A stretch of DNA of 13,529 bases, taken from the UHGV virus genome UHGV-0997613. One strand, written 5' to 3'. The position numbers and the translations under genes were made by a program. The notes under the pieces were generated by a model. The model did no database searches, was not told where the DNA came from, and saw only the letters and a list, made by a program, of their open reading frames with translations. The DNA is from a virus. Of the stretch, positions 1,893 to 12,884 are shown in pieces; the stretch's first letter is position 1; each line of letters begins with the position of its first letter.

Positions 1893-2046
1893 ATGCCTGT
1901 TTACAGGTATCGCCATATCTATGGCGGGTCGAGAGAGCCTAATAGAACACCCTTTCGGGAAATAAGCTCCGCCGTCTGACGCGGTAGTTGAAGCCCGCCA
2001 CCCCACTAAGGTGGCAGTCAATACTAAAACGTCAGGAGTCATGATT

Positions 2047-2670
2047 ATGGCTATTCAACTCATCCCCGTATTCAACGGCACTATCGCCAACGAAACCACT
2101 CTTCTCGTTAATGCTCGCGATTTACATACTTTTCTTGGGGTAGGTAAACGCTTTGCATCGTGGATTACAGAACGCATTGCTGAATATGGTTTCGTTGAAA
2201 ATCAGGACTATATTTTGGTTTCCCCAAATCGGGAAATCAAAGGTCGAGGAGGCGATCGCCGTAGCAAAGACTATCACCTCACCCTCGATACGGCCAAAGA
2301 AACTGCGATGGTCGAGCGCAACGAAAAAGGCCGCCAGATACGCCGATACTTCATCGAGTGCGAAAAGAAACTTCGCAGCATGCAACCAGCGCAGCAATTC
2401 ACAGACGAGGAAATCATCCTCCTCTGCTACATGCAGGTACAGATGGAGAATGCACAGGACATCTGCAAACGCCTGTACCCGATAATGAAGGAACTTAACT
2501 CATCATACGCGAGTAAGCTGTATGACATTGCGTTTGAAACCTTCTATGCGGTGACGAAAAACAGAGATGTACTGCTCAGGGAGGCGACACGACTTGACCA
2601 GGCAAGCGCCGTTTTCGAACGGGCAAGACCAATGTTGAAAAGCCTTCGGGCGAGACAATTCGAATTTTAA
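2047..2670 (+). CDS. AntA-like antirepressor-domain protein (N-terminal AntA-type domain, uncharacterised C-terminal half)
   Basis: ORF 2011..2670. ATG at 2047 is the likely start, with AGGAG at 2034-2038. The N-terminus (LIPVFNG...LVNARDLHTFLGVGKRFASWITERIAEYGFVENQDYILV...DYHLTLDTAKETAMVE...RRYFIECEKKL) resembles the AntA/AntB N-terminal domain as I remember it. Confidence 0.6.
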   Translation: MAIQLIPVFNGTIANETTLLVNARDLHTFLGVGKRFASWITERIAEYGFVENQDYILVSPNREIKGRGGDRRSKDYHLTLDTAKETAMVERNEKGRQIRRYFIECEKKLRSMQPAQQFTDEEIILLCYMQVQMENAQDICKRLYPIMKELNSSYASKLYDIAFETFYAVTKNRDVLLREATRLDQASAVFERARPMLKSLRARQFEF

Positions 2671-2765: not shown

Positions 2766-2974
2766 CACTTCAGGAGTGGAACGCTCGCCAGCGACGCCCA
2801 AGAAGCCTTGAAACAGTTCGTCGATGGGTGCGCGAATGCAGGATATTCCCTCCTCCGGTTAAGGATGGAAGAGAGTATCTGTTCCACGAATCAGCGGTAA
2901 AGGTTGACTTAAATCGACCAGTAACAGGTGGCCTTTTGAAGAGGATCAGAAATGGGAAGAAGGCGAAGTCATGA
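2756..2974 (+). CDS. xis: Excisionase Xis (lambda/HK022 type)
   Basis: 72-aa protein MYLTLQEWNARQRRPRSLETVRRWVRECRIFPPPVKDGREYLFHESAVKVDLNRPVTGGLLKRIRNGKKAKS, matching my recollection of lambda Xis. It overlaps the int start by 23 nt, as in lambda. Confidence 0.9.
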   Translation: MYLTLQEWNARQRRPRSLETVRRWVRECRIFPPPVKDGREYLFHESAVKVDLNRPVTGGLLKRIRNGKKAKS

Positions 2975-4025
2975 GCGCCGGGATTTACCCCCTAACCTTT
3001 ATATAAGAAACAATGGATATTACTGCTACAGGGACCCAAGGACGGGTAAAGAGTTTGGATTAGGCCGAGACAGGAGGATAGCAATCACTGAAGCAATACA
3101 GGCCAATATTGAGTTACTCTCAAACAGCGGACGCAAATCACTGATAGACAGAATTAAAGGCGGTGACGCAATCACTCTTCATGTGTGGCTTGACCGATAT
3201 GAAAGAATCCTCACCGAAAGGGGGATCAGGCCGAAAACTCTACTCGACTACGCCAGCAAAATCAGGGCAATCCGAAGAAAATTGCCGGACAAACCGCTCA
3301 CTGACATATCAACGAAAGATGTGGCAGCAATGCTAAACACCTACGTAGCGGAAGGTAAAGCAGCTTCCGCAAAATTAATCAGGTCAACCCTTGTTGACGT
3401 TTTTCGTGAAGCAATAGCCGAGGGGCATGTGGCAACGAATCCGGTAACAGCAACCCGTACAGCAAAGTCAGAAGTAAGGCGCTCAAGGCTGACAGCTAAT
3501 GAGTATGTCGAGATTTACCATGCAGCCGAACCTCTCCCTATCTGGCTAAGGCTGGCGATGGATTTGGCCGTCGTTACAGGGCAGAGAGTCGGCGATTTGT
3601 GCAGAATGAAATGGTCAGACATAAACGACAACCATCTTCACATTGAACAGAGTAAAACAGGGGCTAAACTCGCCATTCCGCTAACGCTAACGATTGACGC
3701 GCTCAATATCTCATTGGCTGATACACTACAGAAATGCAGGGAGGCCAGCAGCAGTGAAACTATAATCGCATCAAAGCATCACGATCCGCTTTCCCCGAAA
3801 ACAGTATCAAAGTATTTTACAAAGGCGAGAAATGCATCTGGACTCTCATTTGATGGAAACCCGCCAACATTCCATGAACTGCGTAGCCTGTCAGCGAGGC
3901 TATACCGGAACCAGATTGGCGATAAGTTTGCTCAACGTCTTCTCGGGCATAAATCAGATTCAATGGCGGCGCGGTATAGGGACAGCCGTGGACGGGAATG
4001 GGACAAAATTGAAATCGACAAATGA
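2952..4025 (+). CDS. int: Tyrosine integrase, lambda family with HK022-type core specificity
   Basis: 357 aa, collinear with lambda Int (MGRRRSHERRDLPPNLYIRNNGYYCYRDPRTGKEFGLGRDRRIAITEAIQANIEL..., ends REWDKIEIDK). The catalytic region includes HELRSLSARLY and LLGHKSD. Residues at the lambda/HK022 specificity positions read P-K...K and R (PLSPKTVSKYF; ARLYRNQ), which is HK022-like from memory. Confidence 0.95.
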   Translation: MGRRRSHERRDLPPNLYIRNNGYYCYRDPRTGKEFGLGRDRRIAITEAIQANIELLSNSGRKSLIDRIKGGDAITLHVWLDRYERILTERGIRPKTLLDYASKIRAIRRKLPDKPLTDISTKDVAAMLNTYVAEGKAASAKLIRSTLVDVFREAIAEGHVATNPVTATRTAKSEVRRSRLTANEYVEIYHAAEPLPIWLRLAMDLAVVTGQRVGDLCRMKWSDINDNHLHIEQSKTGAKLAIPLTLTIDALNISLADTLQKCREASSSETIIASKHHDPLSPKTVSKYFTKARNASGLSFDGNPPTFHELRSLSARLYRNQIGDKFAQRLLGHKSDSMAARYRDSRGREWDKIEIDK

Positions 4026-4616: not shown

Positions 4617-6767
4617 TTACGGCGCACTGGATAAAATAGACTTCGTCTTCGTAACAATAACATCTACAAAATCACCTGCAGATATAGCTGATGGTACTGT
4701 ATCTGCAAGAGTAATCTTTCCTGAAGAGATGCTTTGCACATCCAATAATTTATTTTCAATCCCATCCGTATATACCAATTTGATATCACTGAATGGAGGG
4801 TAATAAGTAATGGCCCCTTGGTATACATATATTTCACTGCCTGAAATTGATTTCACTACATACCTTCCCCTTACAAGATTAATTTTGAGTTCAGATAAAT
4901 CTGTTTTATAACAGGTAATTCCTGAACCAATGTTAGCAATACTAATATCAGTATCACTATGATAAGTAATTGCTTTACCTTGCTTTAAAGTAAAAGTATT
5001 TTTACTTTTCCTTGGTAAGGATGTGCTATTTTTGTAATATCTACCAGTTAAGCATAGCCATGAAAATGCAGTATTCACTACATTACCACCAGAATACACA
5101 GCTAAACGAATTGCACTAACTGGAACTCCTTCATTATTAATCCTGATCTTAATGGAAGAAATATTAGTAGCAGTTCCATATCTATGGTTAGCAGAATCCC
5201 ATTGCATCGAAGAAGTTATGGCTTCTGTTTGTGAGGTTATGACATTCCCGTCTCCATCTAATGCATACAGGTAAATGCGAAACGATGCCGTATCTGCTGA
5301 GAATGTAAACATATCACCATTTCTTACTGGTATATCTCCCGATTCCCATAAAAGCCCAAAATCCCTCATAAAAGCAAACTTAGAAGAAACCAGGTGACGG
5401 ATATTATATAAACCATCTACATCTGTTTGATATGCTAATACACCAACTTCTCCATTGTTAGCACTGGATATAAATGGGGTGTTAGCATTTAAAGAAAACA
5501 ATGTTACTTCATCGGATATATTTTCCTGAATATGAAATACTGCATTCCCCTTGCCATTATCAGTTACCTCGACATAAGTGTAAGGTGATGGATTGTATGG
5601 CTCATTTGTATACGCAGGAGATGAAAGCCATGTAGCTTCAATTGAGTTATTCCACGTATATTCACCAAAGTTAATTATCAACTGTTGGTTAGTTGGGGAT
5701 GATGGATATCGTTCAAAACGAAACCCGTAGAAGTAATTGTTATCACCTCTTTGAATATCAATTTTACCTGCCCCCTCCATAGTTCCACCATAAAACTTAT
5801 TGTGGTTATGATGATATGGATTATCAGCGAAAATGATATTATTCGTACGATTCAGATAAAAATAGTTTTCATTTATCCATCCTTTCTCAACTCCAAGAAA
5901 ATGAATTGTATCGACCTTTTTCAGGTTAAAGGTTGAGTATGCTATTGAATAATCCGTCGATGCCACCGAAGCATTATAATTTGCATATAACTGTAAGTAG
6001 TCGCAACGCTCAATGTTTATATGCTGCCCTTTTGCCCCGATAATACGAATATCCGGTGTCGTTTCAGATGAAATACCAGAATTTCTGATAATCGTTCCGA
6101 AGTTTTGTCTTGGGTTGTTAGGGTTTGATGCATTCCCGCCAAGCAATACCCCTATTCCTGAGTGGGATATGGTAAAAACAGCATTGGTCATTTCGAGGCT
6201 GACATTACGAAGATTTAATGTCTCCGTAATAATAAAATTACCTTCCGCTCGTAATGTTCTGGATGATTCTCGTGCATATTCTGCAGCCAGGATCAATGCA
6301 GATGTATCATCTGTTATACCATCTCCTTTTGCCCCCCACCCTCTTACATCACAATCGTCCCTCCACCGAGATATCTGCAATTCAGGGTATTTTTTAGCTC
6401 CATCCTGGTCTTCTAATTGCTGCCGTAGTTGATCAGGGTCATACTTCAGCACATTAGGAAAATAGAACTGCTGCACACCATACGCATCGTATACAGCCAT
6501 CGAATGGCCTTGCACAGTTACGAATTTGGCAATCTGTCCATTATATACAGGGTAACCAGCAGCGTTAATGATGATTGGTTGCGATACAGGAACGTGAGAG
6601 CCGTCTTCGTTCTCCACATAAACCTGCACTTGATTCTGTGGGAGCGTGGGATCGGAATCTATCTTACCAATGAATATCTTGCCATTGCTTGCTGCCTGGA
6701 ATTTTCTGGCTAACGTAAATAGTTGACTTGGCATTGAAATTATAACATTTGGCACAATATTTGACAT
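4617..6767 (-). CDS. Tailspike protein: P22-type head-binding N-terminal domain fused to a right-handed beta-helix receptor-binding domain (pectate-lyase-like)
   Basis: 716 aa. The first ~115 residues (SMPSQLFT...[72 protein letters not shown]...NVLKYDPDQ) match the P22 gp9 head-binding domain pattern. The remainder begins [16 protein letters not shown], typical of pectate-lyase-3-like beta-helix domains, and is markedly AT-rich. Confidence 0.9.
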
Positions 6768-6793
6768 AGTGAATCTCTATTTAAGGAATGAAT

Positions 6794-7282
6794 ATGATTA
6801 CTCATAAAGAATTAACCTCTTCACTCAACTACAACCCAGAAACAGGCGTCTTCACTTGGAAGATAGCTTCTGGTAGCTCCAGTATCGGAAAGGTTGCTGG
6901 ATTTAAGACGAACTCACAGGCCGACTACTTATCAATACGGATTAATGGAAAATCGTATCTTTGCCACCGACTTGCTTGGTTTTATATGAAAGGATGCTGG
7001 CCTAAAGGGTTAATTGACCATATTAACGGGGTTAAAAATGACAATAGAATTTCAAACCTAAGAGAAGTAACCAGAGGTCAGAATAAAACCAACAGCGTTT
7101 CATCATCCAATACAGGTATAAAAGGAGTTCACCTTCTTAAAGGGAAAAACACATATAAAGTTATGTTCAAACTAAAAGGTAAGTCTATTTGCCTTGGGTA
7201 TACCGATGATATTGAGCTGGCCGAATTAATGTCTATTGCATTCAGGGAAAAATATCATGGCGAGTTTGCTTGTTTTAGATAA
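6794..7282 (+). CDS. HNH homing endonuclease with a C-terminal AP2-type DNA-binding domain
   Basis: ORF 6788..7282; ATG at 6794 is the likely start, with AAGGAA at 6783-6788. HNH_3-type motif CHRLAWFYMKGCWPKGLIDHINGVKNDNRISNLREVTRGQN and AP2-like GIKGVHLLKGKNTYKVMFKLKGKSICLGYTDDIELAELMSIAFREKYHGEFA. AT-rich, and divergent from the tailspike with only about 26 bp between the start codons. Confidence 0.85.
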   Translation: MITHKELTSSLNYNPETGVFTWKIASGSSSIGKVAGFKTNSQADYLSIRINGKSYLCHRLAWFYMKGCWPKGLIDHINGVKNDNRISNLREVTRGQNKTNSVSSSNTGIKGVHLLKGKNTYKVMFKLKGKSICLGYTDDIELAELMSIAFREKYHGEFACFR

Positions 7283-7350: not shown

Positions 7351-7374
7351 AAAAAAACCCAGCCGAAGCTGGGT
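7351..7374 (-). terminator. Rho-independent terminator downstream of ant (T_ant equivalent)
   Basis: ACCCAGC-CGAA-GCTGGGT stem. On the minus strand it is followed by TTTTTTT (the A7 tract at 7351-7357). It may also act weakly on the + strand for the HNH gene. Confidence 0.7.
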
Positions 7375-7392
7375 CGTTGCGTTGGTTATCTG

Positions 7393-8322
7393 TCAGTAGT
7401 TATGTACTGAAGGAGGTAATTCTTTATTCTTAAGTCTTATCCATGCAGAAAGATTCGTTGGTCCGTCTGGCTCATTGATATCAACATCTCGTGTGTGATT
7501 AATTAAAACATCTCTCGCCATTCCGATAACATACGAGAACTCATGACCGTAGTCGTAGCATCTGCCGGAATAGTTCGATTGAATTTGTTTTAGCGCCGGA
7601 TACAGTTCGCGGAATAATGCCTGTGAGCGGTTGGCATAATCCCATAACCATACAAGGCTGTTTGCTTCTTTTGCAGAAAGCTCGTTGGTTTTCTTCTCTT
7701 GTTTGCCAATGAACTCACCTTCAAGTGGAACTCGAGCTGCAAGTGACAGTGCTTCTGTAAACTGCTCCTCACTGATTTCTTTGTACGAACATCCAAAATG
7801 GGATTTCAGTGACGACCACATGGTAATCATTGCCTTCGCCTGTTTTTCTTTTGGCAGAGACTGACCGCGACTCATGACGAGTTGTTTAATGGCTTCCTGC
7901 TGTTCAGTGGTGATTTTACCCGGCAACGCTTTTTTAGCTTTGCGTGGGTTAACTACATGGCCTTTAGTCCAGTACTCGTAGAGTACATCGTCACACTCTT
8001 CCTGATACTGGATTACCTTGTCGCGGATTTCAGGGCGGACTTTGTTAGGGCTGATGGTTTGCAGCCAACCTGCAAGTTTGCGTAAAGCAAGACAGATAAC
8101 CAGACGACGCTGAGTATCGCCGGGGAGCTGAATCATCATTTCGATGATGCAGGTCTTAAATCTCTCCATCAACTTGCGGTGTTGAGACTGCCAAGTCATG
8201 CCCATTCCCTCAACGATAGGTTTCATTGGGGTGTACGGTTCGCCGTTGTGATTGACAACATAAAGCTCTGCGCCGTGGAATGGCACATTGATAGTAGATA
8301 CTGCTGTTGCTATACTTTTCAT
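7393..8322 (-). CDS. ant: Antirepressor Ant (P22 immI type)
   Basis: Large ORF in the P22 immI position after arc. ATG at 8322 ([30 protein letters not shown]...) has AGGAA 8 nt upstream. The ORF track extends to a GTG at 8388, which overlaps the stop of the 73-codon ORF and is a possible alternative start. Confidence 0.85.
8288..8316 (+). promoter_or_regulatory. Psar-like promoter inside the 5' end of ant, antisense orientation
   Basis: TTGATA (8288-8293), 17-bp spacer, TATACT (8311-8316). The predicted start near 8323 points across the ant ribosome-binding site. Confidence 0.5.
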
Positions 8323-8395
8323 GTCAATATTTCCTAAGACGATTTGTTGATACCGAAGCCCTGACTGTTCCAGCAGTTGGGGCTTCACTGTTTTT
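8323..8395 (+). ncRNA. sar: sar-like small antisense RNA (about 70 nt) complementary to the ant translation-initiation region
   Basis: The Psar-like promoter is followed about 32 nt later by an intrinsic terminator: stem GAAGCCCT (8355-8362) with GGGGCTTC (8379-8386), then ACTGTTTTTGT. The length and position agree with what is described for P22 sar RNA. Confidence 0.5.
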
Positions 8396-8606
8396 GTAAG
8401 TCACTGTAGTTATAAAGCCACTGACCACTCATTCTTGCTTTGATTGACTCTACTGAATCACGGCAAGGAATGATTCCACCTGACATCATTCTGATCTCCG
8501 TAAATTCACCGCTCCTTATCGACTCAATGCCATTAACGTTAACTAAAGATTTACCTCTACCAAGTGCATTCTCATAGCCAATCTCATCAACCTCGATAAA
8601 CTTCAT
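8385..8606 (-). CDS. Hypothetical 73-aa protein between arc and ant, translationally coupled to arc
   Basis: ATG overlaps the arc stop (ATGA), with GAGGGG 8 nt upstream. Its stop overlaps the GTG at 8388. No recognisable family. It sits where I recall P22 having only a short arc-ant intercistronic region. Confidence 0.4.
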
Positions 8607-8761
8607 ACCGTTATCCCCTCTCTCTTCAGGCTGTCCAGCACCCGCTTGTAAATCTCAGAGTTAACAGATCGCCCGTTCTCTTCAGCTACCTTGCGCACCA
8701 AATCCAATACTTCTTTAGGCCACCGCAAATTGAACTGCGGCATTTTGCTCATTCCTTTCAT
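8603..8761 (-). CDS. arc: Arc repressor (ribbon-helix-helix)
   Basis: [52 protein letters not shown] closely matches my recollection of P22 Arc. The start is the internal ATG at 8761, not the 73-aa ORF-track start at 8824. Confidence 0.9.
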   Translation of the reverse strand: MKGMSKMPQFNLRWPKEVLDLVRKVAEENGRSVNSEIYKRVLDSLKREGITV

Positions 8762-8794: not shown

Positions 8795-8800
8795 ATTGAG

Positions 8801-8829
8801 AATATAGTAGAGTGCTTCTATCATGTCAA
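8801..8829 (-). promoter_or_regulatory. Pant promoter with the Arc operator in its spacer
   Basis: On the minus strand: TTGACA (8829-8824), 17-bp spacer, TATATT (8806-8801). The 21-bp Arc operator ATAGTAGAGTGCTTCTATCAT occupies 8804-8824, matching the known P22 sequence as remembered. Confidence 0.75.
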
Positions 8830-8851: not shown

Positions 8852-9100
8852 ATGGCTAGAGATGATCCGCACTTTAACTTCCGTATGCCTTTGGAAGTAA
8901 GAGAAAAATTGAAATTAAGAGCCGAGGCTAACGGAAGGTCAATGAACTCTGAGTTATTACAAATCGTTCAGGATGCTCTCTCCAAACCATCACCTGTAAG
9001 CGGGTATCGTGATGAAGAAGAGAGACTGGCCTCATTAATCTCGGAACGAGTAAAAGAAGTTGCGGCTGAAATTCTAAGGAAAGAAAAAACCCGCGATTAA
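8852..9100 (+). CDS. mnt: Mnt repressor (ribbon-helix-helix, maintenance of lysogeny)
   Basis: MARDDPHFNFRMPLEVREKLKLRAEANGRSMNSELLQIVQDALSKPSPVSGY... matches P22 Mnt as remembered. GGAG lies 7 nt upstream of the ATG. It is divergent from arc-ant, as in P22. Confidence 0.9.
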   Translation: MARDDPHFNFRMPLEVREKLKLRAEANGRSMNSELLQIVQDALSKPSPVSGYRDEEERLASLISERVKEVAAEILRKEKTRD

Positions 9101-9107
9101 GCGGGTT
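9088..9107. terminator. Bidirectional terminator shared by convergent mnt and the toxin operon
   Basis: AACCCGC-GATTAA-GCGGGTT stem flanked by an A6 tract on one side. This gives TTTTTTCTTT on the minus strand and TTT on the + strand. The mnt stop codon lies in the loop and the toxin gene stop abuts the stem. Confidence 0.6.
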
Positions 9108-9556
9108 TAGTCAAACATAGTGTTTCTAAAGTCTCTCGCATACCCTGCTAACACTCTCATTCTATTATGATTGTTAGCAGACATGTGAGCTACAGGGTGA
9201 AAAAGAGCAATCAATGAATACCTGTTCTCATCAAAAAGATTTTGTGCATAAACGAGAGCGGTATTGGATGTTTTATGCCACTGCAACTTTTGCGGTGTGC
9301 TGATATCTGTGCCATTTTTTATTGGCTCAAATTTATTTTCACCAATTGCTAAATGAAGGTGCATAAGACCTGCATCTTCAATATCAGGAGGCCGATGATA
9401 AGAGGTGTCTCTGCCAAAATAGCTGGGCAACGTTCCCGTAGACTTGTAGATGATAAAATCATCTACAAGTGTTTGTTTTAAATCAGGAAACTCAACAAAA
9501 ACCGGGGAGAAAAAATAGTCAAAACTATCCTGATTATATTCCACGGTTACTTGCAT
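9107..9556 (-). CDS. YafO-family toxin homologue (putative ribosome-dependent mRNA interferase)
   Basis: 149 aa. Segments FIIYKSTGTLPSYFGRD, MHLHLAIGENKFEP and LVYAQNLFDENRYSLIALFHPVAHMSANNHNRMRVLAGYARDFR align with E. coli YafO (FISYKRDGVLPDIFGRD; HIHLANENNPFP; LVYCQGAFDEQAWLLIAILKPEPHKLARDNNQMHKIGKMAEAFR) as I remember it. GAGGT lies 5 nt upstream of the ATG and overlaps the upstream gene's TGA. Confidence 0.65.
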   Translation of the reverse strand: MQVTVEYNQDSFDYFFSPVFVEFPDLKQTLVDDFIIYKSTGTLPSYFGRDTSYHRPPDIEDAGLMHLHLAIGENKFEPIKNGTDISTPQKLQWHKTSNTALVYAQNLFDENRYSLIALFHPVAHMSANNHNRMRVLAGYARDFRNTMFD

Positions 9557-9564
9557 GTTTTACC

Positions 9565-10131
9565 TCAGTGGAAGTTACCAGAGTGAAACACACGAGTCCC
9601 GTGCTCAGCAAGCGCACGCAAACCAGCCATATCTACGGAACTATCAAAAACAACCGGAACACATGAGCGTTGTTTAATAAGACTATTCAGGTTAGTTACG
9701 GCAGATCTAGCATCAGCAACAACGATATAGATATCTCTTGCGATCTCTTTAAAATCAGCAGAAGCTTCTTTGAATACCGATTTCATTGCCCCTTCAAGTC
9801 CTCTCAATTGATGCTCTATCAATCGAGACTTTTCTGGTTCAATGATAGACAACACATTGTCTACATTCTCATCGGTAGCGTTTGCAAGAACACGATAAGC
9901 GTATTTCAGCATTCGAGACAATTCTTTAATCGAAGACACCGCCTCATGAAGCTCATCATTAGCCCGTTCACTGCTGAATGAGGATTGATGGTAAGCGTGC
10001 TGAACGTTATCAGTAACAACCACCTCACAACTGAACGCAGAAGCTTGCTGTAATAGCAAACCTATTGCGACTCCAGCTTTGGCAGCGTTCAAGCTAAACA
10101 TTTCATCAATCCCATTAGTCTCATTGCTCAT
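9565..10131 (-). CDS. Hypothetical 188-aa protein, first gene of the toxin operon (candidate non-canonical antitoxin or partner)
   Basis: ATG at 10131 (MSNETNGIDEMF...) has AAGGAGG 5 nt upstream; the ORF-track start at 10161 lacks a Shine-Dalgarno. Predicted mostly helical. No similarity to YafN, RelB or Phd-type antitoxins that I can see. Confidence 0.6.
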   Translation of the reverse strand: MSNETNGIDEMFSLNAAKAGVAIGLLLQQASAFSCEVVVTDNVQHAYHQSSFSSERANDELHEAVSSIKELSRMLKYAYRVLANATDENVDNVLSIIEPEKSRLIEHQLRGLEGAMKSVFKEASADFKEIARDIYIVVADARSAVTNLNSLIKQRSCVPVVFDSSVDMAGLRALAEHGTRVFHSGNFH

Positions 10132-10198
10132 ACAAACCTCCTTCTTATCGGAGATTATCAATAGCTATGTATCCATTGAATACACGCTATGCGCAGTA

Positions 10199-10970: not shown

Positions 10971-12884
10971 TTAGCGATCAGTTGCATCATTGGCAAGTAT
11001 TGGTCTGATGGCATTTGCGGCGTTATTCAGCGCTCTTTCATAAGCTGGCGTTCCAGCTTTAGTGTTTGCCAGACGTAAGAGCGCATTCCTAGCCATAGGG
11101 CTTTCATAAACCCTCGACATAAGGCCAATCCCTGTTTCCCCAGCCAATAGCGCGCCTCCGGTTTTTAGGTTACCAATAACCCTTACCAAAGGCGCGAGTG
11201 TCATGCCAGTCTTCGTCACAACATTAGCCTCAGATGCTCTTTTGGTAGCATCGAGAATAGATAACATCCCCTCTATCTCTTTTCCGTTCTTCCCACCAAA
11301 TACAGTTTTAAACACCTGACCATTTGCTTGTTTTTGCAGCTTGCCAAGCTCGGTCATCATTTTCTGAGGGCTGTCACCTACCTTGTCAGCTATTTTGCTG
11401 ATATATGCCGCCCTTAGCATGTCTTTACCTTTTTGATCGAGTTTCCCGTACAATCGAGCTATATCTGACCCATATTGTCCATACACAATGGTATTTACAG
11501 CCTCGGGAGTTAAATCTCCTTTGTTTAGAACGTTTTTAAGGCGCGTTTGAGTTACATGTGTTGCCATTTTTGCATAATCAGCTTTTCCCGCTCTCCATGC
11601 TGAAGCATCTTTTGGGCTAAGTCCTTTCGCTATAGATTTACTAAGGCTATTGGTTAGCGAGTTATAGACCCTGTCGACCATTGTTTGCGACATTGATGGC
11701 AGAACTGTACGATCGCCTTTTACGTCAATGCGGAACTGAGTTCTCAGCTTATCAAGTAACTCAAAGGCATCATCTCCATTTGTTATCTCCTGAATGGCAT
11801 TCTTATAATCATTAAGCGCAGAAATGGTCTGGGTGTCAGAAACACCTTTAAGTTTCCCAAGTTCGTTTACTGCTCCGTCGATAGCTCTTATGGCGCCACT
11901 TGTATCAACTGGCTTTCCAACCATTCTTCCTGACAGGCTGTTTAGTTTTGACTTGGCTAACGATTTTTCCCTTGCAACGCCTGACTTTAGACTATCAACG
12001 ACTACAGATGGATCGTAGTCGCCGTATTTTTCGGTGAAGCGATTAACAAGCTTGGTTCTGGCATCCTGCTGTGCGGCTCTCATTGGTCCAGTACCAGCTA
12101 TGACTCCTTCTGAGTAACCCTGCAGTTGATTGCCAAGTTTTGTTTTTGGAGGAACTACATCCGATGTCATAACTGGTACATCTGCCGCAGCGGCACGCTT
12201 GAGCAATTGCTGATCTGCTGGTGATATTTCGCCACGAACAGCAGTAATTCCACGCCCTATTCCCTTTGCTGCTGCGGAAAGAACCCCCTGAGCGGCAAGG
12301 TTAACTCCGGCATTTTTAGCTGCATTTTGTGCGAAATCGCCTTTCTGATTTGCAGCATCAGCAAGAGAACCTGCAATCATGTTTCCTGCGGAACCGATAT
12401 CTCCAGCGAGCTTTGCTGTCGCTCCAGCAGCTTTTGCCGCTGTGCCAATTGGCAGGAGATACCCACCAATTGTTTCACCGGCTTGCGCGTAAGGGTCTGT
12501 CGGTCGCTCGACAGGGCGATAAACATCATCCAAAACCTTGGGGCCACCAAGCCCCTGGCTGATTGCATTAATCAGACTTGCGCCACCCTGCAATACGTCA
12601 AATGGTATGTTTACCAGACCACGACCAGCCTGTTCTGCAATTTGCCCTGCACTTTGACCACCAGTGAGCCAATCGCCAGCTTGTTGCATCAATGATGGTT
12701 CTTCTTTCTGCTGCTGAGGCGGAGGGTATGCTGCATAAAACTGATCTCTTGCTTCAGCCCATTTGTCACCAGCCTTAGGGGCAACAACCTCATCAAAATA
12801 TTGCGCTTGAGCCTGTGCTTTCTGTTCTTCAGTTAACGCCTGATACTGTGGAGAAGCGATAACATCTTTCCATGCTTTAGCCAT
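10971..12884 (-). CDS. Internal virion / DNA-ejection protein (P22 gp16 position)
   Basis: 637 aa, Ala/Gly/Gln-rich, last gene of the structural block before the accessory island, as gp16 is in P22. The start overlaps the upstream stop (TAATG). Assigned by position and composition, not by a remembered sequence. Confidence 0.55.
   Translation of the reverse strand: MAKAWKDVIASPQYQALTEEQKAQAQAQYFDEVVAPKAGDKWAEARDQFYAAYPPPQQQKEEPSLMQQAGDWLTGGQSAGQIAEQAGRGLVNIPFDVLQGGASLINAISQGLGGPKVLDDVYRPVERPTDPYAQAGETIGGYLLPIGTAAKAAGATAKLAGDIGSAGNMIAGSLADAANQKGDFAQNAAKNAGVNLAAQGVLSAAAKGIGRGITAVRGEISPADQQLLKRAAAADVPVMTSDVVPPKTKLGNQLQGYSEGVIAGTGPMRAAQQDARTKLVNRFTEKYGDYDPSVVVDSLKSGVAREKSLAKSKLNSLSGRMVGKPVDTSGAIRAIDGAVNELGKLKGVSDTQTISALNDYKNAIQEITNGDDAFELLDKLRTQFRIDVKGDRTVLPSMSQTMVDRVYNSLTNSLSKSIAKGLSPKDASAWRAGKADYAKMATHVTQTRLKNVLNKGDLTPEAVNTIVYGQYGSDIARLYGKLDQKGKDMLRAAYISKIADKVGDSPQKMMTELGKLQKQANGQVFKTVFGGKNGKEIEGMLSILDATKRASEANVVTKTGMTLAPLVRVIGNLKTGGALLAGETGIGLMSRVYESPMARNALLRLANTKAGTPAYERALNNAANAIRPILANDATDR

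Follow-up and report, generated by a model that had tools for sequence, protein, structure and literature searches.

The secondary immunity (immI) region of phage P22 is a textbook circuit that consists of two repressors, an antisense RNA, and an antirepressor. In P22, the stop codon of the repressor gene arc and the ATG start codon of the antirepressor gene ant are separated by 68 nt. In this report, we describe the immI region of the virus genome UHGV-0997613, a stretch of 13,529 nucleotides that is referred to here as the window. The P22-type immI region is found on the minus strand of the window, and a 73-codon gene, denoted here as orf73, is located between arc and ant. The comparisons presented below show that orf73 is conserved, intact and, as judged from its substitution pattern, under purifying selection.

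A structural model of moderate confidence likens the orf73 product to SwrD/FlbD, to RemA, and to one half of a LytTR domain. The crystal structures of SwrD, a member of the FlbD family, were described in a 2026 preprint; the protein folds as strand-strand-3_10-strand-strand-strand-helix and assembles into hexameric rings, the center of which is formed by a 3_10 turn with a conserved Asn-x3-Leu/Ile motif (PMC13232269). The fold resembles that of RemA, ComK, and half of a LytTR domain, but SwrD does not possess the DNA-binding elements of these proteins (PMC13232269). In RemA, the DNA-binding insertion is located between β3 and β4 and contributes Arg50, Arg51, and Arg53 (PMC8481266, PMC13232269).

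Comparison with the immI Region of P22

The elements of the P22 immI region are found in the window in the same order: mnt, the divergent overlapping promoters, arc, the antisense RNA sar with its promoter and terminator, the ant leader, and ant. The repressor gene mnt (8852..9100, +) is homologous to P22 mnt and matches the Pfam Arc domain with an E-value of 7e-28. The repressor gene arc (8603..8761, −) matches the same family (PF03869) with an E-value of 2e-26. A promoter scan identified Pmnt (8796..8824, +; 10/12 matches) and, divergent from and overlapping it, Pant (8801..8829, −; TTGACA-17-TATATT, 11/12 matches), which is predicted to drive arc-orf73-ant. The antirepressor gene ant (7393..8322, −) encodes the P22_AR_N and P22_AR_C domains (Pfam E-values of 1e-45 and 6e-30) and is assigned by PHROG as anti-repressor Ant. 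A terminator scan placed an intrinsic terminator 3′ of ant at 7356..7375 (−), and the phage Emek has an annotated terminator at the equivalent place. The mnt-Pant-arc part, including the Pant/Pmnt region, is 93.5% identical to its P22 counterpart. Divergent mnt and arc-ant units, overlapping promoters, Arc- and Mnt-family repressors, and a sar RNA that starts within ant and ends in the spacer upstream of ant are all present. As read from its sequence, the circuit known from P22 is otherwise complete on both sides of orf73: mnt, Pmnt/Pant, arc, sar together with Psar and its terminator, and ant, which has a ribosome-binding site of its own. The difference is that arc in P22 is followed directly by the ant leader, whereas a 222-nt gene intervenes in the window.

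The ORF list and its translation confirm an ATG-initiated open reading frame (ORF) of 73 codons and 222 nt at 8385..8606 (−), as given in the preliminary description. It encodes a protein of 8.2 kDa with a pI of 5.3 that belongs to phrog_11805. In a four-way alignment of P22, the window, and the phages Emek and 611R6, P22 and the window are collinear from mnt across the promoters to codon 49 of arc. The next ∼205 nt are common to the window, Emek, and 611R6 and are absent from P22; this segment replaces the last codons of arc and adds orf73. Collinearity with P22 returns at TGAAGCCCC, the foot of a hairpin. The distance from the orf73 stop codon to the ant ATG is 62 nt in the window, and this segment therefore corresponds to the P22 arc-ant spacer. 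The proposal that orf73 is an extra gene relative to P22, where the arc-ant spacer is short, is thus borne out, and the two intervals between arc and ant are not of the same length.

The insertion also alters the end of arc, where the final Arc residues change from RIGA in P22 to ITV in the window. The last arc codons (KREGITV*) carry the ribosome-binding site and the start codon of orf73. Among 13 loci compared, the Arc C-terminus tracks orf73 perfectly: it reads DSLKREG[IV][TA]V where orf73 is present and SFKKEGRIGA where it is absent, the latter in P22 and two Escherichia coli loci. This correlation holds across at least four Arc N-terminal types. Since the signals for orf73 translation are found within them, the last arc codons are most simply read as part of the orf73 cassette. 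The alignments show that orf73 is present or absent as a clean cassette, bounded by the last arc codons and the foot of the sar terminator hairpin.

Evidence That orf73 Is a Protein-Coding Gene

Nine distinct 222-nt alleles of orf73 were compared. Of the 27 variable sites, 14 are third codon positions, and the pairwise ratios of nonsynonymous to synonymous substitution rates (dN/dS, or omega) are mostly 0.1–0.4. The most informative comparison, and a more distant one, was provided by a metagenomic homologue, P0006 (locus L004), which has the same mnt-arc-ORF arrangement and is 60% identical in protein sequence with an 11-residue insertion. Between orf73 and P0006, dS is 1.20, dN is 0.22, and omega is 0.19; 30 of the 60 differences are at third positions (p = 0.006). 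The ratio of nonsynonymous to synonymous differences (pN/pS) was determined for this pair in all six frames as a control. It was found to be 0.32 in the annotated frame and 1.0–1.4 in four of the five other frames. The one that departs from this range is antisense, has its wobble positions in common with the sense frame, and contains four stops. No frame but the annotated one lacks stops and is also constrained. A 45-amino acid ORF on the opposite strand that begins with TTG (8440..8577, +) was also considered and was rejected because the antisense frames show pN/pS values above 1 or stops. The preliminary description would have been undermined by a lack of coding-type conservation, and the substitution pattern is of the coding type. 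From these comparisons, we regard it as nearly certain that orf73 is a real protein-coding gene.

The translation signals are similarly conserved. The ATG of orf73 (8606..8604) overlaps the TGA stop codon of arc (8605..8603) to form an ATGA at 8603..8606 (−), and a Shine-Dalgarno sequence, GAGGGG, is located inside arc at 8615..8620 (−), 8 nt before the ATG. Both features, noted previously, can be read directly in the sequence. GAGGGG is kept in all five distinct upstream variants, and the 4-nt overlap with the arc stop is found in every one of them, as ATGA or, in the divergent L004, as GTGA.

Distribution and Existing Annotation of orf73

orf73 was found in 51 of 5426 complete E. coli genomes (∼1%). 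All 51 copies are full-length and 94.6–99.5% identical, and each is annotated as a coding sequence beside an Arc-family gene. It is present in the same context in many Salmonella assemblies, always directly after arc, and the copies from E. coli and Salmonella are at least 89% identical. Two isolated phages, Salmonella phage vB_SemP_Emek (AFM54340.1) and Escherichia phage vB_EcoP-611R6 (URC09203.1), carry the same gene between arc and ant; their 73-residue proteins are 92–96% identical to that of the window, and the overlap with arc is the same. orf73 was not found in the GTDB species representatives or on the plasmids that were searched.

The RefSeq entries WP_021572780.1 and WP_001210981.1 and the family phrog_11805 represent the same gene as orf73 of the window; the PHROG match is full-length (E = 4.5e-52, residues 1–73 on profile positions 1–73 of 73). 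The Emek, 611R6, RefSeq, and PHROG records differ in nothing material and are labeled only as "hypothetical protein" or "unknown function". The description of the product as an uncharacterized protein stands, in that no function is annotated, but the gene had already been described: the ORF has been public since the Emek record of 2012, is a RefSeq hypothetical protein, and has its own PHROG. It is uncharacterized and not undiscovered. In the library that was searched, the literature on immI, the ant moron, phage Emek, and sar yielded no paper that mentions orf73.

Three variants of the gene or its surroundings were observed. In P0004, a 90-residue form represented by three sequences, the stop codon is lost and the frame reads on through the sar hairpin region. 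In L017 (NZ_CP025913.1, 1785..2063), orf73 is intact in a decaying prophage in which ant is a truncated Bro-N pseudogene. In L014 (NZ_CP091756.1), orf73 is intact in a remnant that is flanked by IS3/IS2 elements.

The sar RNA and the Start of ant

The sar gene was located at 8324..8389 (+) by a match to Rfam RF00262 (62.1 bits with a gathering threshold of 43, E = 4.4e-11), and at its 3′ end it overlaps orf73 by the stop codon and the codon before it. A promoter at 8288..8316 (+) (TTGATA-17-TATACT, 10/12 matches in the promoter scan) lies within the first ant codons, and we take it to correspond in position to Psar of P22 (Liao et al. 1987, as cited in PMC2629481). The intrinsic terminator from the terminator scan (8355..8396, +) consists of a 14-bp stem (8355..8386) and the tail ACTGTTTTTG (8387..8396). 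The tail is antisense to orf73 codons 70–73 and the stop codon. The last codons of orf73 therefore fall in the sar terminator region, in agreement with the preliminary description, and the terminator tail is within coding sequence in the window, unlike that of P22.

Both sar stem-loops are kept across 12 loci, where five pairs show compensatory changes. Such changes between loci were seen in stem-loop I (alignment A7, 8318..8396, +), and a compensated change was seen in the terminator stem of L005. This stem hardly varies among the loci, and the tail varies between loci with and without orf73: it is CACTGTTTTTG where orf73 is present, CAACATTTTGA in the divergent L004, and CAACTTTACGCGCC where orf73 is absent. 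The segment that contains the sar terminator and the ant leader was also observed by itself; it matches about 848 of the 5426 E. coli genomes, and some of the matches, such as that in O157:H7 EDL933, fall on ant genes where the annotation under the match shows no Arc-family gene. From these matches, the segment appears to be more widespread than the full immI circuit.

The T-run that follows the sar stem is longer in all loci with orf73 than in P22-type loci without it (TGTTTTTG in the window and AACTTTA in P22). This would be expected if the protein is irrelevant and the insertion matters in cis, through the spacing of arc and the ant leader or a better U-tract for sar; alternatively, the reading frame may be present by chance or in decay. 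The family is also tiny: a search of 5.8 billion proteins gave 8 clusters, and one of 1.84 billion representatives gave no distant relatives. We consider these explanations to be very improbable. The purifying selection is strong and specific to the annotated frame (omega of 0.19), whereas four of the five other frames are near 1, and none of the 51 genomes contains a disrupted copy. The start overlap and the Shine-Dalgarno sequence are kept even at 60% protein identity, and invariant residues are found throughout orf73, although only the last 3–4 codons overlap the terminator tail.

In the preliminary description, orf73 was thought to be translationally coupled on both sides. The conserved 4-nt overlap upholds the coupling to arc. 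On the other side, a GTG at 8386..8388 (−) overlaps the orf73 stop codon (TGA, 8387..8385), as had been pointed out, and in the window it extends ant in frame, but it is not conserved as a start. In 5 of 9 distinct spacer variants, the frame that begins from a GTG or TTG at the orf73 stop is not in register with ant or runs into a stop, and among these variants are those of Salmonella loci that share the ant type of the window. The ant ATG, with AGGA or GAGG as an upstream Shine-Dalgarno sequence, is invariant across the nine variants. In the window, the ATG is at 8322 and AGGA is at 8332..8335. Three independent annotations (Emek, 611R6, and the Prokaryotic Genome Annotation Pipeline) start ant at this same ATG. 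Since the GTG frame is not conserved and the ATG with its Shine-Dalgarno sequence is, ant starts at 8322, and the GTG at 8388 was rejected both as the start of ant and as a sign of coupling between orf73 and ant. By this comparison, orf73 and ant are separated by the sar-target leader, as are arc and ant in P22.

Homologue Searches and Predicted Fold

A word-indexed search of 5.8 billion proteins returned 8 clusters, none of which is outside the orf73 family. When 1.84 billion representatives were searched exhaustively with a HMMER profile, the orf73 family and spurious repeat matches in long proteins were all that was returned. There was no match to orf73 in NCBIfam or in PADLOC, the library of which models defense proteins and not anti-defense proteins. 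The sole match from a sequence search of the PDB, FAIM1 (E = 0.1), was treated as noise.

A probable relationship to SwrD/FlbD was proposed by combining weak profile matches with a structural model. All seven members of the orf73 family give a weak match to FlbD, with a best E-value of 0.007. AlphaFold2 predicted five β-strands (residues 2–8, 18–23, 27–32, 36–40, and 45–48), a short turn after the second strand (residues 24–26), and a helix (residues 52–59), with a predicted local distance difference test score (pLDDT) of 79.6 and a predicted template modeling score (pTM) of 0.67. The orf73 protein is similar in size to SwrD, its topology would, according to the model, be β1-β2-3_10-β3-β4-β5-helix, and it has the Asn-x3-Ile motif with a following Glu. 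The N23-x3-I27 motif is invariant in the orf73 family and aligns to the invariant Asn and Ile of FlbD; in the hhalign comparison, N23, I27, E28, and T36 are placed on invariant FlbD residues. A Foldseek search of predicted viral structures (BFVD) returned dozens of phage proteins of 60–80 residues. Several of these are named "Flagellar and swarming motility protein" (best E = 6.9e-4, with template modeling (TM) scores of 0.70/0.79), and the FlbD-named phage proteins match with TM scores of 0.6–0.7. The profile matches are weak but consistent, and the best structural matches among viral proteins are those annotated as FlbD.

A number of results weigh against this assignment. Pfam gives a single signal, a match to FlbD (PF06289) that, at 12.7 bits, is below the cutoff of 24.7 (E = 0.096), and the hhalign comparison with 24 aligned FlbD proteins has a probability of 6% (P = 0.006 over 40 columns). 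The AlphaFold2 alignment contained 7 sequences only, and two of the five models score 57–60. A Foldseek search of the PDB with the orf73 model returned nothing below an E-value of 0.4. The Pro-Asp-Thr motif in the β3-β4 loop of SwrD is not kept; orf73 has E34-F35-T36 at this position and retains only the Thr. The model of the divergent homologue P0006 has a pLDDT of 40 and is unreliable, and for this reason the assignment of the fold is left at moderate confidence. On balance, we think that the orf73 product probably has a SwrD/FlbD-like fold.

The differences from SwrD/FlbD are also clear. orf73 has a conserved aromatic C-terminal tail in place of a variable charged one, and in every locus examined it is found in a phage immI region between arc and ant instead of in a flagellar (fla-che) operon. 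Its hosts are Enterobacteriaceae, which lack SwrD.

The orf73 product may instead be a third nucleic acid-binding regulator of immI. As an oligomer similar to RemA, LytTR, or ComK, it would bind DNA or the ant/sar RNA and thereby tune Pant, Pmnt, Psar, or the late read-through into the tailspike gene. Most of the characterized relatives of the fold, including these three, bind DNA, and this is a point against the accessory factor proposed below. We nevertheless judge such a regulator to be unlikely. In the orf73 model, the β3-β4 loop appears to be only 3–4 residues in length (S32-F35), where RemA has the helical insertion with Arg50/51/53, and the protein has neither an Arg-rich insertion nor an arginine cluster. 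The hhalign comparison with a RemA alignment gave a probability of 0.4% over 23 columns. As this is not significant, homology to RemA was rejected and RemA was kept only as a structural analogue. The LytTR domain (PF04397; AgrA, ComE) comprises ∼100 residues and ten β-strands, and orf73 is half this size. Pfam gives no match of orf73 to either RemA or LytTR. SwrD, the closest relative in sequence, is without DNA-binding motifs, and loci of the P22 type, in which arc, the operators, sar, and ant are the same, function without orf73.

Proposed Expression and Role of orf73

The arrangement of the locus suggests how orf73 would be expressed. Ribosomes that finish arc would reinitiate at the overlapping ATGA, aided by the GAGGGG inside arc. 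Because this would occur on the Pant transcript, which is controlled by Arc and Mnt, the orf73 protein would be made together with Arc in a short burst after DNA entry or the loss of Mnt. It should be silent in lysogens, where Mnt represses Pant. In P22-like phages, arc and ant are also transcribed from Plate (PMC12111858). The immI region sits inside the late operon, and orf73 may be made again from late-operon read-through when ant is blocked. Since the pairing of sar is limited to the ant leader and the final few codons of orf73, sar would be expected to block the translation of ant and not that of orf73, and orf73 could therefore be translated late.

The product would be an acidic protein of 8.2 kDa with the SwrD/FlbD topology, equivalent to half of a LytTR domain. 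As the Asn-x3-Ile motif of the SwrD ring center is kept, a ring or another homo-oligomer is the probable form. We speculate that this factor binds a conserved component of the host or of a resident prophage in the first minutes of infection, perhaps through its conserved acidic N-terminal strand and the aromatic C-terminal tail (SGQWxYxYxDL).

In our view, orf73 does not belong to the core of the Arc/Mnt/sar/Ant switch. Some immI regions have it and others that are otherwise very similar lack it. Its neighbors comprise Arc proteins with at least four types of N-terminus and ant genes with at least four types of 5′ end, including an ant of the truncated Bro-N type. Variable partners together with a conserved orf73 sequence are a better fit to an accessory cassette with a conserved target than to a partner-specific part of the switch. 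From the context of the gene, we tentatively suggest that orf73 encodes an accessory factor that acts in trans early in infection, perhaps as a small oligomer that binds protein.

The same evidence bears on the possibility, raised in the preliminary description along with an anti-defense role, that orf73 modulates the antirepressor pathway, as an Ant chaperone, inhibitor, or specificity factor, or as a second antirepressor of c2-type repressors. Its position is what would be expected of such a protein, since in every locus seen it is directly upstream of ant on the same Mnt/Arc-controlled transcript, and it was never found outside of the arc-ant context. However, the ant genes beside it have at least four unrelated 5′ ends or N-terminal types, which, together with the number of Arc types, argues against a partner-specific modulator of Ant. 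orf73 is intact next to the truncated Bro-N ant pseudogene, it is absent from many immI regions that have the ant of the window (L020), and it does not co-vary with Ant. A modulator of Ant is, in our estimation, a rather poor prospect. The independence from Ant and Arc types would also be compatible with a protein that binds the c2 repressor or the parts of Ant and Arc that are conserved, and this tempers the argument for an accessory factor.

A further reading is that orf73 encodes an unrecognized functional component of secondary immunity, a ring-forming half-LytTR protein that would be expressed with Arc from Pant in the opening minutes of infection. It might disarm a defense or exclusion function of the host or of a resident prophage. 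Alternatively, it might re-tune the antirepressor switch, with c2-type repressors, Ant, or the ant/sar RNA duplex that ends in the last codons of orf73 as its target. Taken as one proposal with these two versions, this is a speculative reading that we regard as rather unlikely. The target and the role are proposed from context, and the translation, oligomerization, and phenotype are predictions. With these points taken into account, we regard the chances as evenly balanced that the interpretation is correct as a whole, namely, that orf73 is an accessory protein-coding gene of a Pant-arc-orf73-ant unit whose product is made in the Pant burst.

Neighboring Genes

In the listed order of the locus, gene 16 (10971..12884) comes first and is followed by the cargo genes, mnt, arc, orf73, and ant. 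The cargo genes that adjoin mnt in the window are a YafO-family toxin-like gene (9107..9556, −) and its upstream partner of 198 amino acids (9565..10161, −). In related loci, the slot on this side of mnt is occupied by HicA/DUF1902, PIN domain, SocA_Panacea, Rap1a/Tai immunity, or P63C genes, and this difference in cargo marks the slot as a hotspot for toxin-antitoxin and defense-like genes.

An HNH endonuclease gene (6788..7282, +; Pfam HNH_3, PHROG 99, and PADLOC homing endonuclease) is located between ant and the tailspike gene (4617..6767, −). No gene is annotated in this slot in any related locus that was examined. The tailspike gene and the integrase gene (2952..4025, +) are neighbors and convergent, which indicates the gene order of a free or circular phage genome and not that of an integrated prophage. 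A second antirepressor-like gene, with an AntA domain and P22_AR_C, is found near the integrase gene at 2011..2670 (+), and the phage therefore encodes two antirepressor-type proteins.

Conclusions

To the public record of orf73, this analysis adds the evidence that it is a selected gene, the boundaries of the cassette, the finding that translational coupling is confined to the arc side, the overlap with sar, and a moderate-confidence link to SwrD/FlbD, RemA, and half of a LytTR domain. In ∼1% of complete E. coli genomes and in many Salmonella, a textbook circuit carries an extra, tightly conserved gene in the middle of its operon that has apparently gone unstudied. Since Emek and 611R6 carry orf73, the genetics should be straightforward. 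If orf73 is merely a dispensable moron, the gain in annotation would be a modest one, namely, the fold assignment, the correct start of ant, and the overlap with sar. If orf73 does modulate the switch or counter a host defense, it would be a new component of the classic immI system, and it would provide the first handle on, and the first function for, the many small SwrD/FlbD-like proteins of phages.
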